DNA from: Verrucomicrobiia bacterium
Lineage (GTDB): Bacteria; Verrucomicrobiota; Verrucomicrobiia; Limisphaerales; UBA1319
DNA length: 64,000 bases
NCBI GenBank assembly: GCA_963664225.1
Contig: OY760937.1
Span: forward strand, 1,312,001-1,376,000
Direction: 5' to 3'
Part shown: positions 23,576 to 50,365 of the stretch, piece after piece
How positions within the stretch are numbered: the first letter of the stretch is position 1
How the letters are laid out: every line of letters starts with the position of its first letter
Translations under genes and position numbers: made by a program
Notes under the pieces: generated by a model
Seen by the model: only the letters and a program-made list of their open reading frames with translations
What the model was told of the DNA's origin: nothing
The model's database searches: none

Positions 23576-23839
23576 CTAAGGCACCCGCTCGTAATCCGTT
23601 TTTGGTTCAAGCGCAGTGCCGATTCGCTCAACTCTTAACGGATCGCCGGACTCATTGAATTTGATGCGGTCAATGCCAATGCGCGAAATATTGCTCTGCG
23701 CAACAAGCCAGGGAAACAGGTAACGCTGTCGGTCATGGCCAAGAGCGGCTGTCCGATTCAGGACACCCTCGATTTTCATCGGATTGCCCGGTTCCGCCTC
23801 CGTGATTTGTTTGAGGTGCTTCAATTGAAAGCCGCTCAT
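23576..23839 (-). CDS. Hypothetical protein or gene remnant
   Basis: ATGA overlap with the upstream HAD stop codon; no recognisable family. Confidence 0.35.
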   Translation of the reverse strand: MSGFQLKHLKQITEAEPGNPMKIEGVLNRTAALGHDRQRYLFPWLVAQSNISRIGIDRIKFNESGDPLRVERIGTALEPKTDYERVP

Positions 23840-24618
23840 CGTTTCGACTCCTTGGAAGATTTTGTGGGTGGAACGCGGTCCAAACAAGCGACAATGGCTT
23901 CAATCACCCGTTTCGACTCGTTCGGGTCGCGGACCCGGATTGAAAGAACACCTGCTTCTTTCGCCGGATAGTCGTTGCCACCAGGAAACAAGGCATCGCC
24001 GATAAAAATCATCTCCTCGATTGCTATACCCAAAATGTTCCGGAGCTTTCGAATCCCGTAGGCTTTATCAATGCCCGGTTTAGTAACGTCAACGGATGTC
24101 GTCCCTCCCAGCCGCACGGAAAACTCGGGGATCAGTTTATCAAGGAGTTCCTTGAGCTTTTTCCGCTTTGCGAAGTCAGGGTCCCATTTTTTCTTTTCCT
24201 CGATGGGTGCCTGCTGTCCTAACGCCGAGAACGTAATCTGACTTCCCCGGTCTTCAATGGTTTCTCCCCAGACCTTTTCAGCTTTGAAACCCGCTGCTTC
24301 AAGCGCCTCTTTTAACGAACCGATGATTTTCGTTTTTTCGACCGCTGTGAAATCTTCCGAGTAGATCTTTTTCCAATCCCCTGCGTATTGGTAGAACTTT
24401 GTTCCACAGGTGGGAAGGAGAGACAGATTCTTCAGCCGTTCGTCGTGGGGAAGATTGGAGAGTACTTGCTTTTCAAACTGAGGCCAATCGCCACCGGAAA
24501 TCACGGCAACTTTCACAATTCCCAGCAGAGCGGTGAGCAGCTTGGTCATCTCGGCGTCAAGGGATGCTTTGCTTTCGGCGAGCGTGCCATCCAGATCGAA
24601 GACAATGAGCCTTTTCAT
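23836..24618 (-). CDS. HAD-IIB hydrolase, phosphomannomutase-like
   Basis: FDLDGTL, EDRGSQITFS, GGTTSVD, IDKAYG, GDALFPGGND. Confidence 0.9.
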   Translation of the reverse strand: MKRLIVFDLDGTLAESKASLDAEMTKLLTALLGIVKVAVISGGDWPQFEKQVLSNLPHDERLKNLSLLPTCGTKFYQYAGDWKKIYSEDFTAVEKTKIIGSLKEALEAAGFKAEKVWGETIEDRGSQITFSALGQQAPIEEKKKWDPDFAKRKKLKELLDKLIPEFSVRLGGTTSVDVTKPGIDKAYGIRKLRNILGIAIEEMIFIGDALFPGGNDYPAKEAGVLSIRVRDPNESKRVIEAIVACLDRVPPTKSSKESKR

Positions 24619-24621
24619 GGG

Positions 24622-25320
24622 CTAGGGTCCTTCCGGAAACGCAATCTCCCGCAAGCTAACAGAACCATATGGTCGGCACAAATATGCTCCGACATCGACC
24701 AGTAAAAGCATCACGTTGTTGTTTTCCTGCACTTCAAAAAGCGCAACATCGCCCAGCGAGTGAACCGTTCCATCTGTTATGCAATTTCCGCCACCAGGCT
24801 TTGGCACTAAGAATGCGAGATGGTCCGTCACATTCCCACTTAAGATCGCCTGCCATAGAGTATCGGTCGCGGTGGCCGGCTTGAGACCCGCGTAGATACA
24901 GCTTTTGAATCCCGCCTCCAGCACAACCCAGGCTTCGGTTTTGCTGGTCTCGCGCACAGGGAGATGGTTCTTTTGTTGATCCGGTGGATGCACTTGCAAT
25001 GAGAACGTTTCGCACGCATCAAGGAATTTCAGCGGCAGCGGGAATTGGCGGAAGCGCCTGGCCAGTTTTCCCAACAACTGCTCTGGCCACTGCGTCAGCA
25101 ATTGCCCGAGGGTCCGACCTTTGAGCGATCCATCATCAACGTGACTCGGATGGTCAGCGCGGTCGCTTAAAAGCCCTTCGCCGATGAGGCCATCGCTGGG
25201 CAATGGGATAGGGAGCAGATTGCCAACACGTCGCCCTCCCAAGAGCCGGTATTGGCAGGTCGGGTCAAATCGAAGCGGATAAATAGGTGGTTGATCCATG
25301 GCATGTCCCCTAGTTGTCAT
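24622..25320 (-). pseudogene. Degenerate, truncated type I mannose-6-phosphate isomerase
   Basis: SLQVHP and KTEAW retained; WGG changed to LGG, GEAW to GEGL, EVQQNSD to EVQENNN; C-terminal part missing. Confidence 0.7.
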
Positions 25321-25322
25321 GC

Positions 25323-26420
25323 CTATGTTCTTTCCATCGCGGCAGTGTATTCACCACGGCGCGCAGCGCGGTTGCATTTGGCTCGATGAAGCAGGGCCTG
25401 CTGTGCCGCCATCACATTGGCCTCTTTGCTTCGCCAAATCTCCAAAGCCGGTTGCTGGATGGCGCGGGCAAATGAAAACGCCAACGCCCACGGCAGTTGC
25501 GACTTGAATCGTAGATTCATGGCATTTAAACGAGCTGAGGCGAGTTCAGCGGATTGGCCGCCGGATAAAAAAGCAATCCCAGGAACCGCTGCGGGGACCG
25601 TTCGCCACAGACTTTTCACCGTGATGTTGGCCACCTCGTCAATATCTTGTTCCTCGTCCGGCTGCCGGTCGGTCAATCGCACCTGATACTGCTGTTCACC
25701 AACGCCGACTTCTTTGACTTCTCGGTGGGGGGGACAGGTCAATCCCGGCAATACCATGTTGGGCTTTAGAATTATTCCTTCCAGCAGCACGCGCTGGCAA
25801 TTCAACTGGATGAAAACATTTCGCAGGACTTCTTCAGTCACTTTGCGGCACCGTTCCAATGATTGATCGCCCTCCATGAGCACCTCCGGTTCGACAATCG
25901 GAACCATGCCAGCCTCCTGGCACAAAGCAGCGTAGCGTGCCAGCGCGTGCGCGTTGGCCTCTATGCAACTCCGGCTCGGAAGGCCATCGCCAATGGCAAG
26001 AACCGCACGCCACTTGGCGAACCGAGCGCCCATCTGAAAATACTCTTTGAGGCGGTCGCGTAATCCGTCCAGACCTTCGGTGATTTTCTCTCCGAGGTGA
26101 CCGGCCATTTCCTTCGCGCCCGTGTCCACTTTGATGCCAGGAATAATTCCCGCATCAGTGAGAATATTTATGAATGGAGTGCCATCCTTCTTCTGCTGGC
26201 GGATCGTCTCATCGAAGAGGATTGCGCCACTAATGAACTCGCCGAGACCGGGCGTGGTCACAATCAACTCCCGATAGTCGCGCCGGGCCTCGACGGTCTG
26301 CGGGATTCCCAGTTTCGCGAAGCGTTTGTTGCAGGTCGGATTACTTTCATCCATCGCCAGCAGGCCCTTGTCGACCGCGACCATTGCCCTCGCGGTGTTG
26401 GCAAGCTGTTGAGCATTCAT
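25323..26420 (-). CDS. Class I fructose-bisphosphate aldolase
   Basis: GLLAMDES, GIKVD, FAKWR, VPIVEPEV, LKPNMV Schiff-base Lys, FLSGGQS. Confidence 0.95.
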   Translation of the reverse strand: MNAQQLANTARAMVAVDKGLLAMDESNPTCNKRFAKLGIPQTVEARRDYRELIVTTPGLGEFISGAILFDETIRQQKKDGTPFINILTDAGIIPGIKVDTGAKEMAGHLGEKITEGLDGLRDRLKEYFQMGARFAKWRAVLAIGDGLPSRSCIEANAHALARYAALCQEAGMVPIVEPEVLMEGDQSLERCRKVTEEVLRNVFIQLNCQRVLLEGIILKPNMVLPGLTCPPHREVKEVGVGEQQYQVRLTDRQPDEEQDIDEVANITVKSLWRTVPAAVPGIAFLSGGQSAELASARLNAMNLRFKSQLPWALAFSFARAIQQPALEIWRSKEANVMAAQQALLHRAKCNRAARRGEYTAAMERT

Positions 26421-26444
26421 TTGTGTCGTTCGCGTCCGAAGCCG

Positions 26445-26807
26445 CTACACTTCACCCAACCACTTCCTCGCCTCAGCGGCGTCGGCGTGATCGAAGTAAC
26501 GAATCGTCGCTTTCGTGAACGGCTTGCAAAATGTCGCCATCCCTTCCTGCCATTTCTTCTCACCGACCACCGCCAGACAATCAATGTCGCTGAAATGATG
26601 CATCGCAAACTTCGTGTCCTCCCACAACGCGCCGGCTGTCCAGCCATGAAAGCCGGTCATATCGAACAGCACGCGCAGTTTTCCATGCAGCCCGACGAGC
26701 CGCTCGAACTCAGGCACGAAGTGCTCGTAATCTGCTTTCACCAACTTTCCGCTGACGTGGACGGCGAGCATCTTCCCGCCGTTTTCTTCGCTGAGGTTAA
26801 TGGGCAT
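26445..26807 (-). CDS. STAS/SEC14 (SpoIIAA-like) domain protein
   Basis: SGKL..ADY, FHGW...ALWED, AVVG, A..WL. Confidence 0.88.
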
Positions 26808-29292
26808 GCTGGACTCCTTTGGTTTGTTTCACGTTATTATGTTTTCCATGTTTGCTCGCGCTGATCCGCCGTAACTTTAGTTCCGGCGCACACACCTTCT
26901 CCGCTGGCAATTTCCTTTTTTTCGTTTCACCCCGGCCCCACTTCCAATTCCGAATCTCCGGCAAATCCTGGCCGTGTTGATCAATATAATGCTTGTGCTC
27001 AATGAGCTTGTCCTGCATTTGTTGTTTCAAATAAGCGCCCTTGGAACCCAAATTAGGCAGGCGATCCACCACGTCTTGAACCAGATGAAAGCGGTCCAGC
27101 TTGTTCTGCACCCGCATGTCAAAGGCCGTTGTGATGGTGCCCTCTTCCACGTAGCCACGGACGTGAAGGTTGCGATTGGTCCGGCGGTAGGTCAGCCGGT
27201 GAACCAACCAGGGATATCCATGGAAGCCAAAAATGATGTGCTTATCCCTGGTGAAAAGTGAATCGTAATCCGTTTCGTTCAGTCCGTGTGGGTGTTCGCT
27301 CGCAGACTGGAGCTTCATCAGATCGACGACATTGATCACGCGAATTTTCAGATCGGGCAGATGCTCGCGAAGGATGGAAACAGCGGCCAGAATCTCCAGC
27401 GTGGGCGTGTCGCCGCAGCAGGCCATCACCACATCCGGCTCGGAGCCTTGGTCGTTGCTGGCCCATTGCCAGATTCCAATGCCTTCGGTGCAATGCACCA
27501 CGGCGGCATCCATCGTCAGCCATTGTGGCAGAGCGTGCTTTCCCGCAACCACCACGTTGACGTAATGCCGGCTCCGCAGGCAATGATCGAAGACTGACAA
27601 CAGGCAGTTCGCATCGGGCGGTAAATAAACGCGCACGATGTCAGCCTTCTTGTTGATGACGTGGTCAAGGAACCCGGGGTCCTGATGGGTGAACCCGTTG
27701 TGATCCTGCTGCCAGACGTGGGAGGCGAGAAGATAGTTCAGCGATGCAATTTTCCGCCTCCACGGGAGTTCCAAAGTCACCTTCAACCACTTGGCGTGCT
27801 GGCTGAACATCGAATCCACGATGCGGATGAAAGCCTCGTAGCTATTGAACAGCCCGTGCCGCCCGGTCAGCAAATAACCTTCCAACCAGCCTTCGCATTG
27901 GTGTTCGCTTAACATCGAATCCAGCACACGGCCCGCGGGCGCGAGAAATTCATCATTCTTCACTTCGCGCGCGTCCCATTGACGGTTGGTGACTTCAAAG
28001 ATCGCGCCCAGGAGATTCGAGAGCGTCTCATCGGGACCGAAGACGCGGAAATTATTTTGATTCAACTTTGCCACGTCGCGCAGAAAAGTTCCAAGCACCA
28101 TTGTATCTTGGCAGTCCACTGCCCCGGGCGATGGCACAGTCACAGCATGATCGTGGAAGTCTGGCATCCGCAAGTCGCGCAGCAATATTCCGCCATTGGC
28201 GTGGGGATTAGCGCCCATCCGCCGGTTGCCTTTTGGCGCAAGTTCTGCCAAGTCCGAATTGAGCCGACCATTTTTATCGAACAATTCTTCGGCCTTGTAA
28301 CTTTTCATCCAGCGTTCGAGTTGTTTGACGTGCTGGGGATGTTTGGCATCCACCAGCAGGGGCACTTGGTGCGCGCGGAATGTGCCTTCGACTTTCAGGC
28401 CATCCACTTCTTTTGGCCCCGTCCAGCCTTTCGGCGACTTGAGGACGATCATGGGCCAGCGCGGACGCGTGGTATCCTTCTTTTCCCGAGCAGCTTTTTG
28501 GATCTGTCGGATATCCTCGATGCACTTTTCCAAGACTGCAGCCATGAGTTTGTGCATTTTTTCCGGCTCGTCACCTTCCACGACGTAAGGCGTCCAGCCG
28601 CAACCGCGAAAATATTGTTCCAATTCGTCTGGCTCGATGCGGGCCAGAAGGGTCGGGTTGGAAATCTTGTAACCGTTGAGATGCAAAATCGGCAACACGG
28701 CACCGTCAGTGATTGGGTCGAGAAGCTTATTGGACTGCCAGGCTGTCGCCAGCGGTCCTGTTTCCGCTTCACCATCGCCAACAACACAGGCGACGATCAG
28801 GCCGGGATTGTCGAACGCCGCACCGAAAGCGTGCGACAATGAATACCCCAGTTCGCCGCCTTCGTGAATGGATCCCGGCGTCGTCGGTGCCACATGGCTG
28901 GAAATTCCACCGGGAAACGAGAATTGGGTAAATAATTTTTTCAGCCCGGCTTCGTCTTGCGTGATGTTCGGATAAACCTCACTCCAAGTGCCTTCGAGAT
29001 AGACATTGCCCACAATCGCCGGACCACCATGACCGGGACCAGCGACGTAGAACATATCCAAGTCATACTTTTTGATGACACGGTTCAAATGCACGTATAT
29101 GAAATTCTGTCCCGGCGTCGTGCCCCAGTGTCCGACCACAAGTGGCTTCACGTCCGAAAGTTTCAGCGGACGCTTCAGCAGCGGATTGTCGTAGAGGTAA
29201 ATCTGGCCGACCGACAGATAATTGGCCGCGCGCCAATAGGCGTCCATTTTGCGGAGCAATTCCGGCGTAAGAGCATTTGAATTTGCTTTCAT
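26797..29292 (-). CDS. xfp: Xylulose-5-P/fructose-6-P phosphoketolase
   Basis: [42 protein letters not shown]. Confidence 0.97.
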
Positions 29293-29350
29293 GTTTCGCA
29301 ATCAAGTTACAGCCGCATCCTCCGCAGCCACAGAGGTTGCTGAACTGTTT

Positions 29351-29421
29351 CTTCGCTGTCGGCGTCCTGGCTGATGCGGGTTTGAGAAAGCGGGCCCGCC
29401 GCGATCTGCGCGCATGCCAAC
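29351..29421 (-). ncRNA. Candidate conserved structured 5' leader, copy A (xfp)
   Basis: GTTGGC...CGCG-CAGAT-CGCG, GCG-GGCC-CGC, TTTCTCAAA...GCCGAC-AGCGAAG; aligns with copies at 33175-33243 and 34258-34329. Confidence 0.5.
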
Positions 29422-29452
29422 TCTCATTTTACGCCGACGGGGCTGATTCGCT

Positions 29453-29470
29453 ATGGGGTGTTACCCCCAT
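29453..29470. promoter_or_regulatory. Palindromic box ATGGGGTGTTACCCCCAT upstream of xfp
   Basis: ATGGGG-N6-CCCCAT; minus-strand TAAAAT (29431-29426) lies 21 bp away. Confidence 0.72.
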
Positions 29471-29553
29471 GACTGTTCAACGCAGAGAAGAGTGATTTGT
29501 TTCCTGACGACCGTTACCCGGACTCTCGTTGAGTGACCGCTTTCACCACACAA

Positions 29554-31842
29554 TCACAGTTTCATTTTTCGCAGCCGCAAGGCGTTGCTGATCACGGAGA
29601 CGGAACTCAGGCTCATCGCAGCGCCGGCGATGATCGGGCTGAGCAGCCAACCGAAGATCGGGTAAAGCGCGCCCGCCGCCACCGGAATCCCCAGCGCATT
29701 GTAGAGAAAGGCGAAGACGAGATTCTGCCGGATGTTGCTCATCGTGGCGCGACTGAGGCGAATGGCCTGGGCAATGCCACGGAGGTCACCTTTCACGAGG
29801 GTGATGCCAGCACTTTGCATCGCCACGTCGGTGCCGGTGCCCATCGCGATGCCGACTTCTGCTTCGCTTAGCGCGGGCGCGTCGTTGATGCCGTCGCCGG
29901 CCATTGCAACGTGTTTGCCTTCCTCGCGCAACTTCTTGATGTGGTCGACTTTCCCGGCGGGTTCGACCTCCGCTTCCACCGCATCCAGGCCGAGTTGCTT
30001 CGCCACTGCGTCAGCCGTACGAAGGTTGTCGCCGGTGAGCATGACGAGTTTCAAACCGAGCTTGTGAAGTTCTTTGATGGCTTCCGCAGTGGTGGACTTA
30101 ATTGGGTCAGCCACAGCGAGAATGCCAGCAGGCTTTCCATCCACGGCGACGAACATCGCGGTATTGCCTTCTTCCTGGAGTTTTACCGCCGAAGCTGCGA
30201 GTGGCTCCAAACCAATAATCTTTTCGTTTCGCAGGAAGTCGGTTTTTCCAACCATCACTTGCCGACCATCGACATTTCCCACGACACCGCCCGCTGTCAC
30301 AGAACGAAAGTCTTTCACGTCAGCGAGCAGGAGGCTCTGCTCTTTCGCAGCCTGCACAATCGCAGCGGCGAGTGGGTGTTCGCTGTTCTGCTCCAATGAG
30401 GCGGCGAGACGCAGAAATTCCTTCGCGTCGAAACCGTCGGCGGGCAGCACATCCACGAGCTTGGGTTTACCCTCGGTGAGCGTGCCCGTCTTGTCCACGA
30501 CGAGCGTGGTGACTTTTTCCAACCGTTCGAGCGCCTCGGCGTTCTTCACGAGCACGCCTGCCTGTGCGCCGCGTCCGACGCCGACCATGATGGACATGGG
30601 CGTAGCCAGACCGAGGGCGCACGGGCATGCAATGATGAGCACCGCGACGGCGTTGACGATGGCGTGCGCGAGTTTTGGCTCCGGACCCAGCGACATCCAG
30701 ACAACGAAGGTAACCACCGAAACCGCCAGCACCACCGGGACGAAAATGGCCGCGACCTTGTCGGCGAGACCCTGAATGGGCGCGCGGCTGCGCTGGGCTT
30801 CGGCCACCATCTTCACGATCTGCCCGAGCAATGTGTCGTTGCCGACCCGTTCGGCCCGCATGACGAAACTGCCCGTGCCGTTGACGGTGCCGGCCGTGAC
30901 TTTATCGCCGACAGTTTTTTCCACCGGGAGCGGTTCGCCGGTGATCATGGATTCTTCCACGCTGGAGTGACCTTCAACCAGTGCGCCATCCACGGGTACC
31001 TTGTCACCGGGCACCACGCGTAACCAATCACCGACTTTCACCTGGTCGAGCGGGACTTCATGATCGCCACCGTCGGCGACTTGTCGCGCGGTGGGTGGAG
31101 CGAGGTTGATCAGCGCTTTGATGGCGCTGCCCGTGCGGCTGCGAGCGCGGAGTTCGAGCACTTGGCCAAGAAGGACCAGAACCGTGACCATCGCGGCGGC
31201 CTCAAAATAAATGCCGACCTTACCCTCATGCTGCATCGTGGTTGGGAACAGGCCGGGCGCCAGTATCGCTACCGCACTGAAGACGAATGCCGCACCCACG
31301 CCGATAGCAATCAGCGTGAACATGTTCAGGTGTACCGTCATGATGGAGCGCCAGCCGCGCTGGAAAAACGGCCAGCCCGCCCAGCAAACTACGGGCGTGG
31401 TCAGCGCAAATTGCAGCCAGCGTGAAGAATCGCTCATCACCCAGCCATCGCGACCAATCGCGGGGATCAGGTGTGCCATCGCGAGGACGAATACTGGCAA
31501 CGTCAGTGCGGCACCGATCCAGAAGCGCCGCGTCATGTCGCGCAGTTCGGTGTTCTCACCTTCTTCTGGGCTCGCAGTCCCCGTCTTTGGTTCGAGGGCC
31601 ATGCCGCACTTGGGGCAATCGCCGGGATGATCCTGCTCGATCTCCGGGTGCATCGGACAGGTGTAAATGGTTTTACCCTGCAGCTTCTCCTCCTTCTTCT
31701 CTTCGTATTTTGTGGTAGCGGGCGTTGACAGAAACGTTTTATGGCAGTGCTCGTTGCAAAAGTAAAACGTCTGTCCGTCGCGTTCAGCGTGGAGCGGCGT
31801 CGTTTCATCCACCGTCATTCCGCAAATGGGATCAATGGCCAT
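29554..31842 (-). CDS. copA: Cu(I)-translocating P1B-type ATPase with YHS and CPMHP metal-binding domains
   Basis: DPICGM, YTCPMHP, TGE, CPCALG, DKTGT, GDGIND, YN, MSLSS. Confidence 0.95.
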
Positions 31843-31904
31843 ATCCGTTAAGATTCAGTCAAAGTCCAACAATTCTTTTACTGTGAATCATTCTGAGCAG
31901 CCAA

Positions 31905-32291
31905 TCAGCCTGCAGCCGCTTCCGTCATGATTTTAACAATGGTGTTTTCCACTTCCTGCGCCACGTTTTTCAATTGCGGCGTGTGGAACAGCGTCAGCAG
32001 AGTGGTTGGTTTCAAGGTCGCCAGAGTGGTTTTACCATCCTCCTCATAAATGGAAATCCGGCAGGGCAACGCGGTGGAGACGCTCATGTTTTGCTCGAGC
32101 ACCTTCTTGGCCTGTTGCGGCTGGCAAACCTCGAAGATCAGACATTCGCGGGCGAACTCCACGCCCTTCTTATTCATGGTTTCTTTGAGGTTGTGAATTT
32201 GCATGACGCCAAAGTGATTGGCCTCAACGGCGGCCTGCAACGCAGCCGCAGTCTCGCTTACAGTTTTGTCCGTGGATAATCTGATCAACAT
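31905..32291 (-). CDS. DUF302 domain protein
   Basis: IFEVCQP..A, ALPCRISIYE. Confidence 0.88.
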   Translation of the reverse strand: MLIRLSTDKTVSETAAALQAAVEANHFGVMQIHNLKETMNKKGVEFARECLIFEVCQPQQAKKVLEQNMSVSTALPCRISIYEEDGKTTLATLKPTTLLTLFHTPQLKNVAQEVENTIVKIMTEAAAG

Positions 32292-32310
32292 AATATTTTT
32301 GGTTAAGAGT

Positions 32311-32877
32311 TCAATTTACGGGCGGGGAATTGGTTTCCGCAGTATGATGATGCGCTTCTTCACCAGTCGCAGTTCGCAGAGAATCCCGTTCCTGCGCGGT
32401 CAGCTCAGGCAGATGATGAATGAAGGCGACGATTTTCCAGATGTTTTCGTCGGTGTGCGTGGGACCGAAGGCAGGCATGGCAGTCATCCGGATGCCATGT
32501 TTGACGACCCAAAAGAGTTCTCCGTCCGGCGTGTCGTCCCCTCCCTTGCCCAGCGATGGCGCGGGCGGATTGATCCCCTTGGATAACTCGGCCCCGGCCA
32601 CGTCAGGAGCCCCATGGCAGATGACGCAATTCTCGCGATAATGGTCAAGTCCCGTGGCGATGGCTGCAGGATCGCCGGCAAAGGGATTTTTTTCCTTCGG
32701 AGCACGTTTTTCCACCGACCGATCAACCGCCCATGGCGCCAGCGTCCTTTCGATGAGTCCCGGCTTTACGTCCGCTCCCATGTTGATCGCCCCCATGGCC
32801 AGAACGAGGATCGGCACGAGGAGGGTGAGCAGAATGCCAACCACAAAACTCAACGGTATCAACCATTTGTTTTTCAT
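32311..32877 (-). CDS. Membrane-anchored c-type cytochrome
   Basis: CVICH, HGIRMTAMPAF, N-terminal TM, HHH near the C-terminus. Confidence 0.9.
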   Translation of the reverse strand: MKNKWLIPLSFVVGILLTLLVPILVLAMGAINMGADVKPGLIERTLAPWAVDRSVEKRAPKEKNPFAGDPAAIATGLDHYRENCVICHGAPDVAGAELSKGINPPAPSLGKGGDDTPDGELFWVVKHGIRMTAMPAFGPTHTDENIWKIVAFIHHLPELTAQERDSLRTATGEEAHHHTAETNSPPVN

Positions 32878-32900
32878 TTCGCTCCTTCCCCATTAGCGTT

Positions 32901-32972
32901 TCATTGAACGGCAACCTTGCAGGTAGTAGCCGTTTCGCTCACAGTTTTGTCCGTGTATAATTTGACCAGAAT
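32901..32972 (-). pseudogene. Remnant duplicate of the DUF302 gene 5' end
   Basis: ILVKLYTDKTVSETATT vs MLIRLSTDKTVSETAAA; shares ACAGTTTTGTCCGTG with the intact gene near 32260; start codon reads ATT; early stop. Confidence 0.7.
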
Positions 32973-33026
32973 ATATTTCCCTTCATGTTAAAATACTCGC
33001 TTCACGGGCGCATCGCGAACGAAAGA

Positions 33027-33152
33027 TTACTTCTTGGCCATCTTGCCAATCACGACGATCAGCAAGACCACCACCGCGATGCCAATCACCGCCATAATCC
33101 ATATTCCTCCGCCCCCCCATCCACCCATCCATCCGTCTGTATTGTTCATCAT
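33027..33152 (-). CDS. 41-aa single-TM microprotein with Met/Gly/Trp-rich N-terminus
   Basis: Hand translation MMNNTDGWMGGWGGGGIWIMAVIGIAVVVLLIVVIGKMAKK; absent from the ORF track; first gene after the conserved promoter-leader. Confidence 0.75.
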   Translation of the reverse strand: MMNNTDGWMGGWGGGGIWIMAVIGIAVVVLLIVVIGKMAKK

Positions 33153-33174
33153 ATTCTGTTACTTTCGGTTTGTA

Positions 33175-33243
33175 CTTCGCCGTTGACACCCGGCTGATAG
33201 GGCATTTGAGAAACCCGATGCACATCGGTTTTCACTGGTGCTC
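33175..33243 (-). ncRNA. Candidate conserved structured 5' leader, copy B (copper module)
   Basis: Hairpin AACCGATG-TG-CATCGGGTT, then TTTCTCAAATGCC, ATCAGCC, GTCAAC-GGCGAAG. Confidence 0.45.
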
Positions 33244-33277
33244 ACATTCACATTGCTTCAGCGTGTGCGGCTTCGCT

Positions 33278-33295
33278 ATGGGGTATAATCCCACC
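33278..33295. promoter_or_regulatory. Box ATGGGGTATAATCCCACC upstream of the copper module
   Basis: Matches the recurring motif; minus-strand CAATGT lies 22 bp away. Confidence 0.62.
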
Positions 33296-33446
33296 CAGAC
33301 AATTAGCGGCATTGGGGGTCGAAAACGAATTCGTCGAGAGATGAGTTCTAACACGCGACGGTTTTCCACCGCCGCAAATGCATTGGGCAGGACGCCACGG
33401 CGCAATTACCGCCGTGCAAACCCCGAGCATTTTCCAATAGCAGGAG

Positions 33447-34226
33447 TTACTTGTGTGAATGTGCCAGTGCTCCGCGTTGATCGCTCTCGTTCCAATAACC
33501 TTCAAGTTTGTAGTGCCCATACAACCCGGATTCATAGTCCCGGTTAATCAGGGACTCCGCAGTGTATTCCGGAGAATCCTTGATGGCCTCTCGGGAAAGA
33601 TTGACGAAGACTTTCGATTCACTCCAACTCACGCGATCGATCCATTGCGGGGAAACCAGGACCTTTTTTCCCGGCCACCAGTTCCGCGTGGCCACCACAA
33701 GGTAACGGATCGCCCACGTCTGGTCATCAATGATGAAATCCTCGACGTGACCAATTTCGCCGTCCGAGGCCTGGATTTCATAGCCACGCACATCGTTGGT
33801 GCTGCGCAGATGAGGGTCCCAGGCCTTCTCACCTTGAGTGGGGGCCTTCCAGTTCTCCCGGTCCCGCGCGATGTAGGGGTAATTCCCCCACATGTAGGGG
33901 CCGCTCCAATACATCGGCCAGCCATAATACCCGTAATAGGACTCCTCGAATTGGCGGGAGACGGGCTTGTCACTATTCAACGACGGACTCCCTTCAATCT
34001 GCTTTTTGGTCAAATCCACGGCGATGTGCTGCTCGGCCTTGATTGCCGCGACCAGCGCATATGGGGAAATCAATACCTGTCGGCCTGTAAGCCAACTTCC
34101 GGTGTTGGCGACCAGATAGCGAATGGTCCAATGCCTGTCATCGAAGTAGAATTCTTTCACCTCCCCAAATTCTCCGTCGAGACTGTCCAATTTATAACCT
34201 TCCAGTGTCTTGGCTTTGCTTAGCAT
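33447..34226 (-). CDS. Tandem PRC-barrel domain protein
   Basis: Two repeats of DGE.G.V.(E/D)F..DD..W.IRYLV..T..W..G..VL.SP. Confidence 0.92.
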   Translation of the reverse strand: MLSKAKTLEGYKLDSLDGEFGEVKEFYFDDRHWTIRYLVANTGSWLTGRQVLISPYALVAAIKAEQHIAVDLTKKQIEGSPSLNSDKPVSRQFEESYYGYYGWPMYWSGPYMWGNYPYIARDRENWKAPTQGEKAWDPHLRSTNDVRGYEIQASDGEIGHVEDFIIDDQTWAIRYLVVATRNWWPGKKVLVSPQWIDRVSWSESKVFVNLSREAIKDSPEYTAESLINRDYESGLYGHYKLEGYWNESDQRGALAHSHK

Positions 34227-34257
34227 AATAATATTTTCCTAATATAGTGTTCGGTTG

Positions 34258-34329
34258 TTTCGCTACTGGCCGTCCATCTGGACAAGGCATTTGAGAAAGC
34301 GATTGCGCCGCGACTTGCGCGGGGCCAAC
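34258..34329 (-). ncRNA. Candidate conserved structured 5' leader, copy C (PRC-barrel gene)
   Basis: GTTGGCC...CCGCG-CAAGT-CGCGG, GCG-CAAT-CGC, TTTCTCAAATGCC...GGCCAGT-AGCGAAA. Confidence 0.5.
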
Positions 34330-34362
34330 ACTTAAACATGATTTGACGCGCACTTCTTTGCT

Positions 34363-34380
34363 ATGGGGTAAAACCCCACC
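34363..34380. promoter_or_regulatory. Box ATGGGGTAAAACCCCACC upstream of the PRC-barrel gene
   Basis: Matches the recurring motif; minus-strand CATGTT lies 22 bp away. Confidence 0.65.
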
Positions 34381-34422
34381 GTGTAACAGAGGAGAACGAC
34401 GGCCTCCTTGAGTGGATTCAAT

Positions 34423-35661
34423 TCAGAGAATTATCTCTTCACGGGTTGGGATTTCCCTATTGCAACTGGCAACGCCGAGGCCGACGATGCGGCACACCGT
34501 GCGCGCAATCATCAGTTCTTCGTCTGTGCGGACGACGCGCACCGTGGCCCGGCCGACGTCGGTGGAAATCACCGCTGCAGACTCCGCATTGCGCGACTCA
34601 TTCAGTTCAATGCCAAGGTATCCCAATCCTTTACAGATGCGCGCGCGGATGATCGGTGCGTTTTCCCCTATGCCACCGGCGAAGACGAGCGTATCCAATC
34701 CTCCAAGCGCGGCGGCGAACGCGCCGATCCACTTCTTCGCCTGATAACAAAAGAGCGCCACGGCTTCCGCCGCCCGAACGTCGTGCGTTTCGCGGTCAAG
34801 CAGGTCACGCATGTCGGAACTGGTCTCCGAAATGCCAAGCAATCCAGACTCGTGGTTAACCATTTTGTAAAACTGGCTGGTGGTGATCTGCTCGGTTCGC
34901 GCCAGATACGGCGCGAGGCCGGGGTCTAAATCGCCTGTGCGGGTGCTCATCACCAACCCCGCAGTCGGCGTGAAGCCCATGCTCGTGTCTATGCTTTTGC
35001 CATCGCGCACGGCGGCCAGGCTCGCACCGTTGCCGAGATGAGCGAGGATCACGCGTCCTTTCAAGGCTGCCGGATCGCCGAGGCGCGTGAGTTCTTCCAT
35101 CAGGTAAGCATACGACAAGCCGTGGAAACCGTATCGTTGAATTCCCTTGGCGTCGAAGCGTCGCGGAATCGGCAGTAGTTTGGCCACCCGCGGCATATCG
35201 CGGTGAAAAGCCGTGTCGAAACAGCCCAATTGAGGTAGTTTCGAATGACGCTGGCGGAAGGTCTCAATCAGTTCGATTTCGCGGGGCAGATGATCCGGGT
35301 CATAAGGACAAATGCGATGCAGTTCATCCAATAATTCCTGAGTGACCAATTCTGGCGCGGTGTGGTTCATGCCGTGGACCACGCGGTGGCCCACCGCTCG
35401 GACCGATTCAAGACCTATCTGCTTTTCGAGCCAGTCAATCAAGGAATTCGCCGCTGATTTATGATCGGAAGCGGTGATGCTCAGACTGGGTTGAGGCTTT
35501 CCCTCGGGATCTGTGAACGTCAGATTCGTCCCACTCAAACCGATGCGGTCGATCTTACCATGAAGCCCTCGCTTCAGCGGTTCGCCCACCATGTAAAGCG
35601 CGAACTTGATGCTCGACGAGCCGCCGTTGATCGTCAGGATGCTTTGGTTTGCTGGTTTCAT
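34423..35661 (-). CDS. ackA: Acetate/propionate kinase
   Basis: INGGSSSIK, GHRVVHG, FDTAFH, YGFHGLS, HLGNGAS, GGIGEN, TDEE. Confidence 0.96.
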   Translation of the reverse strand: MKPANQSILTINGGSSSIKFALYMVGEPLKRGLHGKIDRIGLSGTNLTFTDPEGKPQPSLSITASDHKSAANSLIDWLEKQIGLESVRAVGHRVVHGMNHTAPELVTQELLDELHRICPYDPDHLPREIELIETFRQRHSKLPQLGCFDTAFHRDMPRVAKLLPIPRRFDAKGIQRYGFHGLSYAYLMEELTRLGDPAALKGRVILAHLGNGASLAAVRDGKSIDTSMGFTPTAGLVMSTRTGDLDPGLAPYLARTEQITTSQFYKMVNHESGLLGISETSSDMRDLLDRETHDVRAAEAVALFCYQAKKWIGAFAAALGGLDTLVFAGGIGENAPIIRARICKGLGYLGIELNESRNAESAAVISTDVGRATVRVVRTDEELMIARTVCRIVGLGVASCNREIPTREEIIL

Positions 35662-36308
35662 GGTTGATTCCTTCGGAGCTGGCTCGGTTCTGGGTTAGAA
35701 TGGCTTATCGCGTCCACTTTTGCGCCGCGCCCAACTGAGCCGGAAACCGGTCCAGCGAAGAGTTCATTGTGCGTGATCAGAGAAAAAAGCAGCCAGAGGA
35801 TGTAGGTAATGAAGAGAACGGCGGCGATGGCCAGGGAAAAACTCTGTTCGGCTCGCGGCGACCAACCGCCCTGCAGTCGATCGGGTGCTAGATGAAAAAT
35901 CGTTGGAAAGATCAGTCCGATAGCCGCCAGGCCAAGCGAAGTAGCGGCCATGCGCGCGGTGGTCTGGTTGAATGTCTGCCGGGGGAATCGCATGACCCCG
36001 ACCAACATGGATGTGCCGACCACTAGGAGGATGTTGCCGATGATCAATTCGGCGGCATTGCCAAAGCTCGCGTTGAGCAATCCGCCGATGCCAGGACAGC
36101 CATATGCGCTCAGATGCCCGGTCGCTTGCCCCATCCAACCGGCCAGCGGGATGATCGCCAGACCCGTAACGATGAAAAACCGGCTTTCGTTCATCCACGC
36201 CGGAACATAACGAATGGCGAAAGCCGCCGACACCGCCAGCATTAACCAATCAAGCGGCTGAAACATGCCAGGATTTAGCCGCTCGTGCTTTTTTATATTG
36301 GCGGACAT
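35658..36308 (-). pseudogene. Truncated Ca2+/H+ antiporter (ChaA/CAX family) with internal deletion
   Basis: GGLLNASFGNAAELII joined directly to GNILLV, so the usual intervening ~20 aa are missing; second repeat absent. Confidence 0.72.
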
Positions 36309-36349
36309 ATTTAAAACTACGCCAACTGCAGGTTGCCGTCCTCCAGCAC

Positions 36350-36386
36350 TCCGCGAGCCGCCGACATCAACGACGAGAATTATCAA
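36350..36386 (-). pseudogene. Possible N-terminal remnant of a ROK/polyphosphate glucokinase gene
   Basis: IILVVDVGGS resembles the phosphate-1 motif of sugar kinases; very short. Confidence 0.35.
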
Positions 36387-36416
36387 GGGATTGTTTTTAC
36401 TTTGGTTGTCGGCAGG

Positions 36417-36599
36417 TCAGTTTGACGGGAGCGGCTTCGTCATGGCCTGATACATCATTTCCGAGCTGACAAACGGCGGACCGTAGAGTTCGTAGCCGCC
36501 GCTGAGTTTTTCGTTCACTTGCTGGGCCAGCCTTTCATGGGTTGCGGCATCGGCGTGAAAAGGCACCGCGACGATTATGTATTCGATTAAGGTTTTCAT
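36417..36599 (-). CDS. Small DUF1737-like protein
   Basis: L..QVNE.L..GYELYG.P...YQAM pattern. Confidence 0.7.
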   Translation of the reverse strand: MKTLIEYIIVAVPFHADAATHERLAQQVNEKLSGGYELYGPPFVSSEMMYQAMTKPLPSN

Positions 36600-36609
36600 A
36601 GGGTTCGCA

Positions 36610-38145
36610 TTACGAGTTCTTTCTCTTCTTCTTGCCATGTCCGACCAGCTCGGTTGGTAGCGGCCAACGATGTCCGGGAGCCAGCAGCGCTTGAGTATTC
36701 TCCGGTCCCCAGGTGCCTGCAGCGTAATTGGGAAAATCACTCGGAGCCGTCTCCTGCCACACTTCAAGCACCGGCATCAGCAGTCCCCATGCAGCCTCCA
36801 CCTGATCGGCGCGCATAAAGAGCGTCGCGTCGCTTTTCATCACATCCCACAAAAGCGTTTCATACGCATCGGGTGAAGGTGCGTCGAAGCTTTCCCGATA
36901 ATAGAACCGCATGTCCTCGGGTCGCAGCTGCATTTTCGGTCCCGGATACTTGGCCTGAAAGCCGAGCACAATGCCTTCTTCGGGTTGAATCGAAAGGATC
37001 AGCCGGGAGGCTTGCCATCCGAGGGAGGCTTCGGGCGGGAAGGATTGATGCGGCACCGCGCGAAATTGAATGGAAATTTCCGAGGCCTGTTGCGGCAGAC
37101 GTTTGCCGGTACGCAGGTAGAACGGCACATCCTGCCAGCGCCAGTTGTCAACAAACAGTTTCAACGCCGCGAACGTTTCCGTTTGGGAATCGTGCGCTAC
37201 GCCATTTTCCTCGCGATAGCCGGGCCTTTTTTGGCGATTGAGGTTGCCGGGACCATATTGTCCGCGCACGGCGCTTTGCGGGACGGCGTCGCGGTGAATC
37301 GGACGGGCCGCGTGGAGCACGTCCACCTTCTTATTGCGAATTTCGTCGGCGTCAAAGGAGACCATCGGCTCCATCGCCACGAGACACAGCAGTTGCATCA
37401 AATGATTCTGCACCATGTCACGCAGTGCGCCGGCGTGATCGTAATAACCGCCGCGATGCTCGACCCCCACCGTTTCGGCAACGGTGATGGTCACATAATC
37501 AATGTAACGACGATTCCAGAGCGGCTCGAATAGCGGGTTGGCAAAGCGGAACGCCAGAATGTTCTGCACCGTTTCTTTGCCGAGATAATGATCAATACGG
37601 TAAACCTGGGACTCGTCAAAACTGGTGGCGAGAATGGCATTCAAGGCGCGGGCGGATTCCAAATCGTAACCGATCGGTTTTTCGATCACGATTCGCGCCC
37701 ATTCCCGGTCGCGCGCCAGTCCAGCCTTGCCGAGATACTTTGGAATTTCGCCGAACATGCTCGGCGGCGTGGCCATGTAAAAGATACGATGGGCTTTGGT
37801 GCCCCATTTCTTTTCCAGCATCGCGCATTGTGCGCCCAGAGCTTTGTAAGTTTGCAACTTCTTGAAATCCCCCGGTTGGTAATGGATGTGTCGAGCAAAC
37901 TGATTCCAGGCGAGAGTCTTGGCTTTCCCGAAACGGGAGAATTGATTGACGCCGTCGTGTAACCGGCGGCGAAGCGCAGCATCGCCGAGCTTGATACGGT
38001 CCACCGCGAGAATCGCAAATTGTGCGGGCAGGCTGCGATCCTGCGAGAGGTCGAACAAGGCCGGGACAAGTTTGCGCCAGGTCAAGTCGCCGCCACCGCC
38101 GAAAATGACAAATACCGTTGGTTCAAGTTTATCATTTGTTCTCAT
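36610..38145 (-). CDS. zwf: Glucose-6-phosphate dehydrogenase
   Basis: GGGDL, IEKP, RIDHYLGKE, DMVQNH, YLRTGK. Confidence 0.97.
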   Translation of the reverse strand: MRTNDKLEPTVFVIFGGGGDLTWRKLVPALFDLSQDRSLPAQFAILAVDRIKLGDAALRRRLHDGVNQFSRFGKAKTLAWNQFARHIHYQPGDFKKLQTYKALGAQCAMLEKKWGTKAHRIFYMATPPSMFGEIPKYLGKAGLARDREWARIVIEKPIGYDLESARALNAILATSFDESQVYRIDHYLGKETVQNILAFRFANPLFEPLWNRRYIDYVTITVAETVGVEHRGGYYDHAGALRDMVQNHLMQLLCLVAMEPMVSFDADEIRNKKVDVLHAARPIHRDAVPQSAVRGQYGPGNLNRQKRPGYREENGVAHDSQTETFAALKLFVDNWRWQDVPFYLRTGKRLPQQASEISIQFRAVPHQSFPPEASLGWQASRLILSIQPEEGIVLGFQAKYPGPKMQLRPEDMRFYYRESFDAPSPDAYETLLWDVMKSDATLFMRADQVEAAWGLLMPVLEVWQETAPSDFPNYAAGTWGPENTQALLAPGHRWPLPTELVGHGKKKRKNS

Positions 38146-39578
38146 GACTCACGCTCGCTCTCCCATTCCGTGTGAAACGTGCCCTTGGCATCGTTGCGCT
38201 CATAAGTGTGCGCGCCGAAATAATCACGCTGGGCCTGAATGAGATTGGCCGGCAGCCAGGCGCTGCGATAGGCATCGAGATAACCCAGCGAAACCATCAA
38301 CGCCGGAGCAGCGACGCGTGACTCAACCGCCTGACCCACGATGTAACGCAAATCTTCCTCATGCTCCATGAGCTTGCGCGACAAATTGGGATCGAGCAGC
38401 AAATTTGGCAGATCACGCCGCTTGCGAAACGCCGCGCAGATTTCTTCGAGCAACACGGCGCGGACGATACAGCCGCCCCGCCAGATCCTCGCCACGGCTT
38501 CAAGATCGAGGTGATACCTGTATTTTTCCGAAGCCGCCGCCAAAAGCGCCATCCCTTGCGCATAGGTGATAATCATCGAGGCAAAAAACGCACTTCCCAA
38601 TCGCGTGAGAAACGCGTTACGATCGCCGACGAAACGCCAAATGGGTCGCTGATAAACAATGCTGGCCTGCTCCCGTTCCTTCTCAAACTTGGACAAATCT
38701 CGCATCGCGACCGCCATGTCAATCGTTGGAACCGGCACTTGCAGTTCCATCGCGCTTTGTGAGGTCCACATGCCGGTGCCTTTCTGTTTGGCCACGTCGA
38801 GAATTACATCAATCAGCCGCTTGCCGGTCTTCTCGTCCTGTTTGGAGAATATATGGCTGGTGATTTCAACAAGATAACCATTGGTTTCTCCGTTGTTCCA
38901 TAAAGAATAGACCCCATGCAATTCGTCGTCGTTCAAGCCGAGGCCACTTTTCATCAGATCGTAGGTCTCGGCGAGAAGCTGCATGACACCGTATTCGATG
39001 CCGTTGTGGACCATCTTCACGAAGTGCCCGGCTGATCCCGGACCCAGCCAAGTCACGCACGGATCACCGTTGACCTGCGCAGCCGCTGCTTCAAAAACAA
39101 GCCGGACGCGCTCGTAGGCCTCTTTCGTCCCGCCGGGCATGATGCTCGGTCCGTGACGCGCACCTTCTTCGCCACCCGACACGCCCACGCCGAGAAACTG
39201 GATGCCCTTCGCCGCCAAACTGCGGGCGCGTAAATCCGTGTCTTTGAAGTAGGAGTTGCCAGCATCAATGATGAGATCGCCCTTCTCCAAATGCGGTAGC
39301 AAATCCTTGATGACCGAATCCACCGGAGCGCCGGCGGGCACCAACATCATAATCGCGCGCGGGCCGTGAAGCATTGCGATAAAATCGGGGACACTCCCCG
39401 CGCAATAGATAGTACGTTCGGCTGATTCCTTCCGCAGCGCCTCAACCTTGGCCATGTCCTTGTCGTAACCTGCCACGGAGAAGCCATGGTCGGCTATGTT
39501 CAACACAAGATTGCGCCCCATTACTCCCAAACCCACCATGCCGATTTCAAACTTTTGCTGTGCTTGTTTATTGATCAT
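38142..39578 (-). CDS. gnd: 6-phosphogluconate dehydrogenase, decarboxylating
   Basis: GLGVMG, VSGGEEGA, KMVHNGIEY, QKGTG, QRDYFGAH. Confidence 0.97.
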   Translation of the reverse strand: MINKQAQQKFEIGMVGLGVMGRNLVLNIADHGFSVAGYDKDMAKVEALRKESAERTIYCAGSVPDFIAMLHGPRAIMMLVPAGAPVDSVIKDLLPHLEKGDLIIDAGNSYFKDTDLRARSLAAKGIQFLGVGVSGGEEGARHGPSIMPGGTKEAYERVRLVFEAAAAQVNGDPCVTWLGPGSAGHFVKMVHNGIEYGVMQLLAETYDLMKSGLGLNDDELHGVYSLWNNGETNGYLVEITSHIFSKQDEKTGKRLIDVILDVAKQKGTGMWTSQSAMELQVPVPTIDMAVAMRDLSKFEKEREQASIVYQRPIWRFVGDRNAFLTRLGSAFFASMIITYAQGMALLAAASEKYRYHLDLEAVARIWRGGCIVRAVLLEEICAAFRKRRDLPNLLLDPNLSRKLMEHEEDLRYIVGQAVESRVAAPALMVSLGYLDAYRSAWLPANLIQAQRDYFGAHTYERNDAKGTFHTEWESERES

Positions 39579-39588
39579 CGTTTTTCCT

Positions 39589-40452
39589 TCAGAGCAGTTT
39601 GCGGATGGATTCCAACTCACGCCGACGCTTTGCGGTGGTCTTGGGATATGCCATTTCAAGTTCTTTGAACGCATCAAGGATGATTTGTGAAATAATCAAC
39701 CGGGCATTCTTCTTGTCATCGGCGGGGACGACATACCAGGGAGCGGTTACGGTGCTCGTGGCACTCAGGCACGCTTCATAGGCCTGCATATAGAGAGGCC
39801 AGAATTTCCGCTCATGAACATCCGCGAGACTGAATTTCCAATTCTTGTCCGGCTCATCAATGCGATCGAGGAAGCGCTCTCGTTGTTCATCCTTCGACAG
39901 ATGAAGGAAGAATTTGATGACCCGTGTCCCGTTGCGGTGGAGATGGTCCTCCAGGTCCACGATGGAACGATACCGGTCCTTCCAGATTGTCTTCGCGTCC
40001 GGCAACTCATCGGGGAGCCTCTGGCTGATGAGAATCTCGGGATGCACCCGAACGATGAGCACTTCCTCGTAGTAGGAACGATTGAATATGCCGATGCGCC
40101 CGCGTTCCGGCAGACGGCGCGTGGTGCGCCAAAGAAAATCGTGCTCCAATTCCTCGGGGGTTGGCTGTTTGAAACTGAACACTTCGCAGCCCTGAGGATT
40201 GACTCCGGACATCACATGCCGGATGGCGCCGTCCTTTCCGGCGGCGTCCATTGCTTGAAAGATAAGCAGCAATGCATGGCGGTTGGATGCGTAGTGAAGC
40301 CGTTGCAACGAACTCAACTCCTCAACCTGTGCTTGCAGGAGTTTGTGATATTTCTTTTTCGACTTGTAAAAAGGTTCCACCATCGTCGGCCACCTTTTGA
40401 GATTCACTTTTTCCCCGGCTGGCACCCGGAAGTCATTGGAATTGATTGTCAT
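39589..40452 (-). CDS. ppk2: Polyphosphate kinase 2 family protein
   Basis: [30 protein letters not shown]. Confidence 0.94.
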
Positions 40453-40453
40453 C

Positions 40454-41167
40454 TTAATTTCTCCTTGTTAGCAGTCGTCTTGGTGTGGGAGTCTCCTGAA
40501 TGACTCCCTCGTCATCCGAAAATCCGAACGAGGCCAATTTCGCACTCGTGAACTTGTAATCCTTGTGCAGAATGCCTCGCATCCCCAAACCTTCCGCGAC
40601 CCGGACGAACAGCGGAGTATTTTCGATATAAACTATCTGCCGAGCTGGCGTCTGCGCGATATCCAGTGCCAGTCGAAAGATGTCGGCGTCGGGCTTGCGG
40701 AGGTGAACGAAGCAGGAGGAAACAAAAAAATCCACAAACTCATCCAGATTGAACTTGCGAATCCGATACGCATTCAGTTCGCGCGCTTCGTTGCTGACCA
40801 CTGCAATCTTCAGTCCATACTTCGACTTGAGCTTGCGGACCAAATTGATCATCTGCGGATACGGCTTCGACTGCGCAAACATGAAGCGCCGAAATTCAGA
40901 ATGGTTGAACGGTCGTTTTTGGAAGAAAACCACCCGATTCAAATATTCTTCCAGAGTGAGCTTTCCCTCCTCGTAAGTGGCGAAGTTCAACTGATGCCGA
41001 TCTTCCATCTCCGCCCACACCAGCTTGAAGCGTTTCGCGGCCCGTCTGCGGGCATGATGATCCCATCCGTTGGTGAGCAGCACGCCTCCAATATCCACAA
41101 ACACACAGGTGATTGCAGTCGTTCCCTTCGCCGTATTTTCTTTTAAAGATCGGATCATCGCTTCCAA
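40454..41167 (-). CDS. HAD-IA family phosphatase
   Basis: [16 protein letters not shown]; start may be 41158. Confidence 0.88.
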
Positions 41168-50051: not shown

Positions 50052-50365
50052 CCGCGAGGTTATTCTGAAGGTTACACGGCTTTTGAGGATTGTGCCTAAA
50101 AAACAACCCTCACCCTTTATTCTCAGATCGGCTCTGTCCTCTGGTTAAACGTAAATGCCGACACGCTGCGGCTACTCATCCAGAACCCCGCACATAACGG
50201 CCGCCATCCGCCCACTGCTCGCTAACCGCTGCGCGGCGCCTAGGGTATTCTCAGCAACATGCAAAGGCGCATGGAGTCGAGTCACGACAGGTCTGCTGGA
50301 ACGCTCCTGATGAGCTGCTGCCGGGCCATTTGCATAGCGCATTCAATCCATGAGATAAATGAATT

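Follow-up and report, generated by a model that had tools for sequence, protein, structure and literature searches.

A palindromic promoter box and an order-specific putative leader upstream of stress- and dormancy-type genes in Verrucomicrobiota

The DosR/DevR dormancy promoters of Mycobacterium carry a palindrome of G/C tracts that overlaps the -35 region and precedes many dormancy-type genes; to our knowledge, these Dev-box promoters have no counterpart of a conserved leader. Promoters of the general stress response, read by EcfG or SigB, consist of two short sigma-specific elements and contain no palindrome. RfaH-like factors read elements of the ops/JUMPstart type, which lie early in the transcripts of selected operons, and riboswitches are built of helices with covariation. 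Here, we describe a cassette that joins a palindromic promoter box to a conserved putative leader, found in a 64,000-nt stretch (hereafter the window) of the genome of a Verrucomicrobiia bacterium (Limisphaerales, UBA1319; GCA_963664225.1, contig OY760937.1, positions 1,312,001 to 1,376,000). Members of the Verrucomicrobiota abound in soils, in peat and in water. A literature search, limited in depth, found no description of Verrucomicrobiota promoters or stress regulation and nothing relevant to the cassette.

Three cassettes lie on the minus strand of the window, upstream of the phosphoketolase gene xfp (copy A), of a metal module that starts with a small membrane open reading frame (ORF; copy B) and of a PRC-barrel gene (copy C). 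A preliminary description had reported them there, and their positions, motifs and small stems were all recovered (Table 1). The distance from the -10-like hexamer to TTTCTCAAA is 36 nt in each copy, as fixed as had been claimed, and GCGAA, placed 25-27 nt past TTTCTCAAA in that description, starts 24-26 nt from its last base by our count (33, 33 and 35 nt from its first T). AGCGAA is repeated at a distance of 95, 96 and 98 nt in A, B and C, respectively. The aligned copies are 63% identical, with ACCCCATAGC, TTTCTCAAA and GCGAA as invariant runs. Exact CCCCATAGC occurs three times in the window, in the cassettes only; with one mismatch it is not enriched there (11 versus 12.3 expected). Exact TTTCTCAAA is likewise found three times in the window and confined to the cassettes, compared with 0.87 +/- 0.88 occurrences in shuffled sequences, 4 of 100 of which reach three. 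In an exact-motif search, the two motifs stand at a separation of 50-70 nt exactly three times in the 5.78-Mb genome.

Of the two halves of the cassette, the promoter is the firmer finding and has the wider reach. The 'ATGGGG box' of the preliminary description is present, but it forms the right-hand portion of a palindrome of 13-15 bp, GGGGT-N3-ACCCC. In its general form, T[AG]GGGT-N3-ACCCCA, the palindrome runs into TAGCGAAG and is followed about 13 nt further by a TAnnnT-like -10, the sole conserved element of sigma-70 type; a sigma-70 scan of the minus strand at the cassettes detected no TTGACA-like -35 located 16-18 nt before a TATAAT-like -10. The left arm is variable (TAGGGT or TGGGGT) whereas the right arm is constantly ACCCCA, and a single ACCCTA is not compensated, which makes the palindrome a DNA site and not an RNA hairpin. 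Its centre lies 30 nt from the -10-like hexamer, hence at about -43 relative to the start predicted by taking this hexamer as the -10. Such a position would suit either an alternative sigma factor or an activator in contact with RNA polymerase, as at class II-type promoters, where a dyad site is centred about 41-44 nt before the start. Two other promoter types were rejected by eye: a sigma-54 promoter in GTTGGCAC, which has no GC at the right spacing, and a heat-shock-sigma -10 in CCCCATAG, for which the spacing of the upstream element is 12 versus 16 nt in C and A.

The box is also far more widespread than the leader. A scan for the exact box, with one genome per species, returned at least 123 loci and, among the matches listed, the large majority are titled Verrucomicrobiota or Limisphaerales. 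Among 80 such loci that were fetched, the leader extends to model position 112 or beyond in 17 and to position 104 in one, while 61 match the box region only. Similarly, many matches of our sequence-only covariance model of the cassette, R1, cover just the first ~50 model positions (box and -10). In these box-only promoters a CGTAnnnT is conserved at an unchanged distance; a short A-rich leader comes next, with a start codon ~45-60 nt after the -10, which places the predicted start site just after the hexamer and supports the earlier view of the cassette as a promoter followed by a leader. The pattern TRGGGTNNNACCCCAT was found in 60 of 401 sampled Verrucomicrobiota genomes, with a nearly empty reversed-pattern control. 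There are 11 sites in the source genome (G000) and 10-30 in some genomes of other classes, where they are often clustered (nine in 50 kb in G174, nine in 33 kb in G552).

The genes behind the boxes encode PRC-barrel, CsbD-like, BON and VIT1-like proteins, Dps, SOD, CheB, phosphoketolase, PPK2 and P-type ATPases. In the source genome, boxes are found in the neighbourhood of the genes for Dps, SOD, CheB and nitroreductase and of many genes for small proteins that are secreted or in the membrane, and in genomes of other classes we found xfp, transaldolase, PPK2, BON, Dps, SOD, P-type ATPase and sensor kinases behind or beside them. Judged from these gene sets, this non-canonical promoter box appears to be the common signal of a stress/dormancy regulon in Verrucomicrobiota. 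A second box island of the source genome (boxes at 2.263-2.294 Mb) contains a GerE-type regulator gene (C1:2265530-2266207) and two genes for HisKA_3 kinases, and in G552 a box lies directly upstream of two HisKA_3 kinase genes. This co-location makes a NarL-type regulator a candidate for the box, as a lead only.

The leader, about 90 nt long, contains four conserved blocks: CCGYG...GATCGCGG, which can form a 5-bp hairpin, GATTTCTCAAAC, CGGAC-GCC and AGCGAA. Pairwise identity is 0.8-0.9 within the blocks versus 0.3-0.5 in the columns between them, a pattern also visible in weighted entropies; this contrast favours purifying selection acting on the blocks. The spacing of -10 and leader tolerates insertions of 2-4 nt. 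A leader peptide or upstream ORF is excluded by length differences of 1 nt and in-frame stops: no reading frame is conserved across the copies, the distance from TTTCTCAAA to the GTG in GTGTTGGC is 33 nt in some copies and 34 nt in others, copy C contains an in-frame TAG and copy B an ATG immediately followed by TGA. The idea that the coding sequence of the PRC gene extends N-terminally into the leader likewise fails on stops and 1-nt indels. A terminator scan gave no minus-strand terminator-like site in any of the three leaders, and a search of the genome for a trans-acting small RNA complementary to the TTTCTCAAA region (12-mers, at most one mismatch) gave dozens of scattered matches, none of them outstanding.

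The preliminary description counted three copies, which holds for the window, but the genome contains five. An exact-motif regular expression recovers only the three window copies, and the other two required a covariance-model search. The fourth, nearly a duplicate of B, goes with a second metal module, and the fifth, more divergent, lies upstream of an operon encoding LemA, an M48/TerB protease and a P-type ATPase (Table 1). A gapped pattern run on 41 relatives had given matches in five genomes, of which, besides the source genome, only G021, from another family of the same order, was judged homologous by inspection; this copy, which precedes a PRC-barrel homologue, helped to build R1. At E <= 0.01, R1 matches 28 of 151 genomes of the order, in many families. 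Cassettes occur in a syntenic cluster in G102 (C71: 2815-2927, 7809-7927), G150 (C192: 426-540, 5749-5862) and G083 (C104), in which the PRC / metal module / xfp order recurs, and the A-like, B-like and C-like types all recur in G150, which is from another family. Scanning metagenomes for the box together with TTTCTCAAA yielded 83 loci, picked by exact motifs, and a whole-genome search of five more genomes gained two copies. After pooling and de-duplication we obtained 96 distinct leaders, so that the expected homologues do exist elsewhere; apart from those of metagenomes, all belong to genomes of this order. A leader-only model, R2, gave nothing convincing in 150 genomes of other orders: its matches there (E 1e-5 to 1e-3) were rejected as short and partial, in GC-rich DNA and with no nearby box. 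Membership of a known family, the check proposed earlier, was searched with cmscan against Rfam 15: between positions 29000 and 34700 only a chance miRNA match appeared at E <= 10 (E 8.9), and the sole match in the whole window is nhaA-I at 16946-16999. A mobile repeat of MITE or REP type was also rejected, as a same-strand ORF starts ~110-290 nt after the box in the full-length copies examined. The cassette is ancient at the order level and, as far as Rfam 15 and the literature search reach, undescribed.

How might such a leader work? Our preferred reading, which we hold tentatively and at somewhat less than even confidence, is that it is a largely unstructured, cis-acting 5' untranslated region that serves as a platform for a second layer of control on part of the regulon. 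The palindromic box, located where a -35 would sit, would together with the TAnnnT-like -10 drive the stress/dormancy genes as a first module. The second, order-specific module would be the leader, transcribed and mostly single-stranded except for one small hairpin. We infer that it acts in cis at the RNA level by binding a protein, a small RNA or an RNase, so that some transcripts of the regulon, those of the PRC-barrel gene, the metal-ATPase module and xfp, would be adjusted in their stability or translation. Hints of an action at the RNA level come from the tolerated insertions and from the small hairpin P2 (CCGYG / CGCGG, loop CNRAU), tested like the helices P1 and P3 on alignments A6, A7 (non-redundant) and A10, none of which was fitted to a structure. 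P2 is paired in 93.0, 91.1 and 92.5% of cases in A6, A7 and A10, respectively, and its variation is mostly compatible with G.U pairs on the leader strand (40 G.U versus 6 A.C cells).

Several points weigh against this reading. The word 'leader' rests on the predicted -10, and the binding partner is purely conjectural. Covariation in P2 is marginal, with three cells changed on both sides versus 0.9 (A6, 20/500 shuffles reaching the observed value), 0.5 (A7, 4/500) and 1.4 (A10, 76/500) in shuffled alignments; related sequences can give such values without structure, values like 5/500 occurring in 5-25% of unconstrained alignments. P2 is missing altogether from copy B, averaged pair probabilities do not exceed 0.29, and the z-score of the minimum free energy has a mean of only -0.92 over 20 leaders (A +1.56, B +0.51, C -1.05). 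The third-codon identity of the adjacent PRC genes, 0.73 over 18 codons only, points to a shallow sample, so that conservation may partly reflect shared descent. Finally, the conservation of the box and of TTTCTCAAA is inflated by the choice of metagenome copies by exact motifs.

One alternative is that the blocks are DNA operators for a second transcription factor bound downstream of the start, either a roadblock or looping repressor or a co-activator; AGCGAA at -35 and again 95-98 bp downstream would then be two sites for one protein. That primary sequence and not pairing is conserved, that 36 nt constantly separate the -10 from TTTCTCAAA in the three window copies, that AGCGAA recurs at such similar distances and that the window and the genome are rich in regulators would all fit. 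However, about 90 conserved bp are long for a single operator, helical phase is lost through the 2-4 nt insertions of L010, L217, L235 and the L222 group, and we saw no typical dyad or direct repeat other than the short AGCGAA. Moreover, a duplex DNA site does not need the strand asymmetry of the P2 variation. We regard this explanation as unlikely.

The leader could also be devoid of function, a 5' untranslated region duplicated together with its promoter in one conserved cluster and kept alike by gene conversion between copies ~1-5 kb apart and by shallow divergence. The preliminary description had raised a duplicated promoter module as its own alternative, which is partly right: copies within a genome can share idiosyncrasies, as do the two of G102 with their unusual left arm and spacer, and the fourth copy of the source genome is a near-identical duplicate of B that came with the whole module. 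All three copies of the window fall within 5 kb, in a syntenic cluster laid out as in G102, G150 and G083, and leader identity is close to third-codon identity. Nevertheless, the alternation of conserved blocks and variable columns speaks for purifying selection and not for uniform drift, the window copies retain TTTCTCAAA exactly and in register despite their overall divergence, the three types recur in another family, and other promoters of the regulon have no leader. On balance, a functionless leader seems to us improbable.

The preliminary description proposed a structured leader and made covariation its own test. Beyond the marginal signal in P2, RNAalifold keeps only four pairs in 52 non-redundant leaders (-2.58 kcal/mol, covariation term ~0). 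RNA structure is thus poorly supported, and the leader is not yet a credible structured RNA. The suggested pairing of the 5' and 3' ends (P1, TGTTGGC with GCCAACA) received support on A10 (82% paired, 21 versus 13.6 +/- 3.1 shuffled, 7/500) as well as A6 (75%, 18 versus 11.1, 7/500), but not on the non-redundant A7 (76.5%, 10 versus 9.5, 242/500). P1 is changed on both sides in two clades, from TTGGC:GCCAA to TCAGC:GCTGA at two adjacent pairs in one and at a single pair, to CTGGC:GCCAG, in the other, and the middle segment pairs perfectly with the 3' segment in hairpins of 10-12 bp (-18.7 to -20.4 kcal/mol) in two clades. The top mutual-information pairs (APC-corrected; columns 88/150/159) were rejected as the signature of one clade; since these pairs are clade signatures, the changes in P1 and in the hairpins count as one or two events. 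In several copies P1 is broken without compensation (TCGGC, CCGGC or TTAGC opposite GCCAA). The third helix, P3 (CGCTGTCAGC with GCCAACAGCG), is 72-74% paired on A6 and A10, shows no excess on any alignment tested (230/500) and has more A.C than G.U cells (80 versus 44). We found no set of several helices with compensatory changes above controls, as would be expected of a riboswitch.

A bolder version would see in the leader a new class of cis-regulatory RNA that gates the translation or decay of core dormancy genes through a protein or a metabolite, on top of an undescribed phylum-wide regulon with a new palindromic box and a NarL-type regulator; the 3' segment would alternate between pairing with the 5' end and with the middle segment, a switch that we consider rather improbable. 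Least likely of all is a structured, riboswitch-like RNA sensing a ligand or a protein, possibly in two states with GCCAACAGCG pairing with the 5' end (GTGTTGGC) or the middle segment (CGCTGTCAGC), which the P1 values on A10 and the clade hairpins would suit but the non-redundant alignment, P3, the uncompensated breaks, the few pairs kept by RNAalifold and the absence of a terminator or a sequestered start region speak against.

Table 1. Features of the cassettes and of the genes behind them. Positions are those of the window, except where C1 is indicated.
Feature	Position	Strand	Remarks
Cassette A (box and leader)	29352..29470	-	upstream of xfp; R1 match, E 4e-25
Box A, palindrome GGGGT-AAC-ACCCC (29455-29467), then ATAGCGAA	29447..29469	-	
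Exact CCCCATAGC, box A	29450-29458	-	
-10-like TAAAAT, cassette A	29426-29431	-	
Hairpin P2, copy A	29399..29413	-	GCGCG-CAGAT-CGCGG, 4 bp
TTTCTCAAA block, copy A	29381..29389	-	
GCGAA, cassette A	29352-29356	-	
Cassette B (box and leader)	33176..33295	-	upstream of small membrane ORF/cytochrome c/DUF302/P-type ATPase module; R1 match, E 9.6e-26
Box B, imperfect palindrome GGGAT-TAT-ACCCC (33280-33292), then ATAGCGAA	33272..33294	-	
Exact CCCCATAGC, box B	33275-33283	-	
-10-like CAATGT, cassette B	33250-33255	-	
Copy-B-specific hairpin	33215..33228	-	CCGAT-GTGC-ATCGG; P2 absent
TTTCTCAAA block, copy B	33205..33213	-	
GCGAA, cassette B	33176-33180	-	
Cassette C (box and leader)	34259..34380	-	upstream of PRC-barrel gene; R1 match, E 1.1e-23
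Box C, perfect palindrome GGGGT-TTT-ACCCC (34365-34377), then ATAGCAAA	34357..34379	-	
Exact CCCCATAGC, box C	34360-34368	-	
-10-like CATGTT, cassette C	34335-34340	-	
Hairpin P2, copy C	34308..34322	-	CCGCG-CAAGT-CGCGG, 5 bp
TTTCTCAAA block, copy C	34290..34298	-	
GCGAA, cassette C	34259-34263	-	
Fourth copy	C1:2854026-2854141		near-duplicate of B, second metal module
Fifth copy, divergent	C1:1386997-1387109		upstream of LemA, M48/TerB protease, P-type ATPase operon
PRC-barrel protein, 259 aa	33447..34226	-	behind cassette C; Pfam PRC
Small membrane ORF, 41 aa (MMNNTDGWMGG...)	33027..33152	-	first gene after cassette B
Cytochrome c, DUF302 and P-type ATPase stretch	29554..32877	-	behind cassette B
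Cytochrome c	32311-32877	-	Pfam
DUF302	31905-32291	-	Pfam
P-type ATPase	29554-31842	-	Pfam; YHS and HMBD domains
xfp (phosphoketolase)	26797..29292	-	behind cassette A; Pfam XFP_N, XFP, XFP_C; ATG 29290-29292

Between 44 and 23 kb of the window, the genes all share the minus strand. Before cassette C they encode glycogen phosphorylase, a HAD protein, PPK2, 6-phosphogluconate dehydrogenase, glucose-6-phosphate dehydrogenase, a protein with a weak Na_Ca_ex match and acetate kinase. Then come the PRC-barrel gene behind C, the metal module behind B and the phosphoketolase gene behind A, followed by genes for a SpoIIAA-like protein, a class I aldolase, a PMI-like protein and another HAD protein. 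A long same-strand cluster (23836-43701, minus) unites the glycogen, PPK2, oxidative pentose-phosphate, acetate kinase, phosphoketolase and class I aldolase genes with the three cassettes, and it looks like a route from reserve carbon to acetate amid stress genes. Among the 87 distinct full-length cassettes first pooled, the leader stands before genes unrelated to each other, most often a PRC-barrel gene (~50) and otherwise, for instance, xfp, a CheB-like gene, the metal module's small membrane ORF or a gene for a Met-rich secreted protein. The 41-aa type of ORF follows the leader in other genomes too, and an 80-aa frame overlapping it in the window has no Pfam match.

A further hairpin, specific to xfp, lies downstream of cassette A (29319-29336, minus; CCUCUG...CGGAGG); in A-type leaders from metagenomes (L185 type) it reads CUCCGC...GCGGAG, with both arms changed and pairing kept, as judged by eye. 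Read on the plus strand, the copy-B hairpin (33215-33228) is followed by TTTT and scores as terminator-like, and no plus-strand gene is evident upstream. The paralogous metal module (C1:2852700-2854700, L055) contains, besides its near-identical cassette B, two more boxes, one of which precedes a Gly-rich small membrane ORF. Around the cassette and PRC-barrel gene of G021 (L001, C294), translations reveal ORFs resembling the end of a PPK2 gene and a ribosome hibernation factor. The second box island of the source genome (C1:2263000-2302500), outside the window, has at least five good boxes and encodes a 2907-aa protein. In other classes (L289-L293; G174:C7, G552:C8), the box precedes xfp with no leader, and the islands also hold PPK2, BON, Dps/SOD, a P-type ATPase, a pair of GH1 and MGDG-synthase-like genes and an ice-binding-like protein. 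Elsewhere in the window, the nhaA-I riboswitch match (minus strand, 47.5 bits, gathering score 37) precedes an ORF without Pfam match (16336-16866), with TrkA/TrkH, CLC channel and sugar-handling genes nearby, and the region 49209-51837 (plus), where DUF932 and a phage-type Dam methyltransferase stand among ORFs without Pfam match, may be the remnant of a mobile element.

The box provides a sequence handle for listing the stress/dormancy regulon across the phylum, including the glycogen-to-acetate phosphoketolase route, polyphosphate kinase, Dps/SOD and ion pumps, and the leader marks the subset that would be under an additional layer of control. Should this layer be real, post-transcriptional control, of which no case is known in the phylum, could be approached through it. 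Our results temper the first reading, in that the leader is kept as a series of sequence blocks and not as the folded RNA then proposed.

Compared with the cis-regulatory leaders of Rfam, such as the nhaA-I element of the same window, the cassette leader is similar in size and in position between promoter and start codon, but it matches no Rfam 15 model and, unlike riboswitches, has no helix clearly supported by covariation. It is reminiscent of the ops/JUMPstart elements in being a conserved primary sequence early in the putative transcript that would work without a conserved RNA fold, although it contains no ops-like block and its targets are short operons or single genes. The gene set, with CsbD, BON/OsmY-like, PRC-barrel, Dps and small membrane proteins, resembles that of the general stress response of Alphaproteobacteria (EcfG) and Firmicutes (SigB), whereas the promoter differs by its upstream dyad and its ordinary-looking TAnnnT -10. 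There is also a likeness in architecture to DosR/DevR. Half-site sequence and spacer appear to differ from the 20-bp Dev-box consensus (here 13-15 bp with a 3-nt spacer), the phylum is another one, and the link between box and regulator is one of co-location. The box palindrome likewise occupies the -35 region of many dormancy-type genes, both gene sets include a P-type ATPase, a nitroreductase, a ribosome hibernation factor and carbon-reserve metabolism, and HisKA_3 kinases together with a GerE-type regulator are encoded in the box-rich islands described here.

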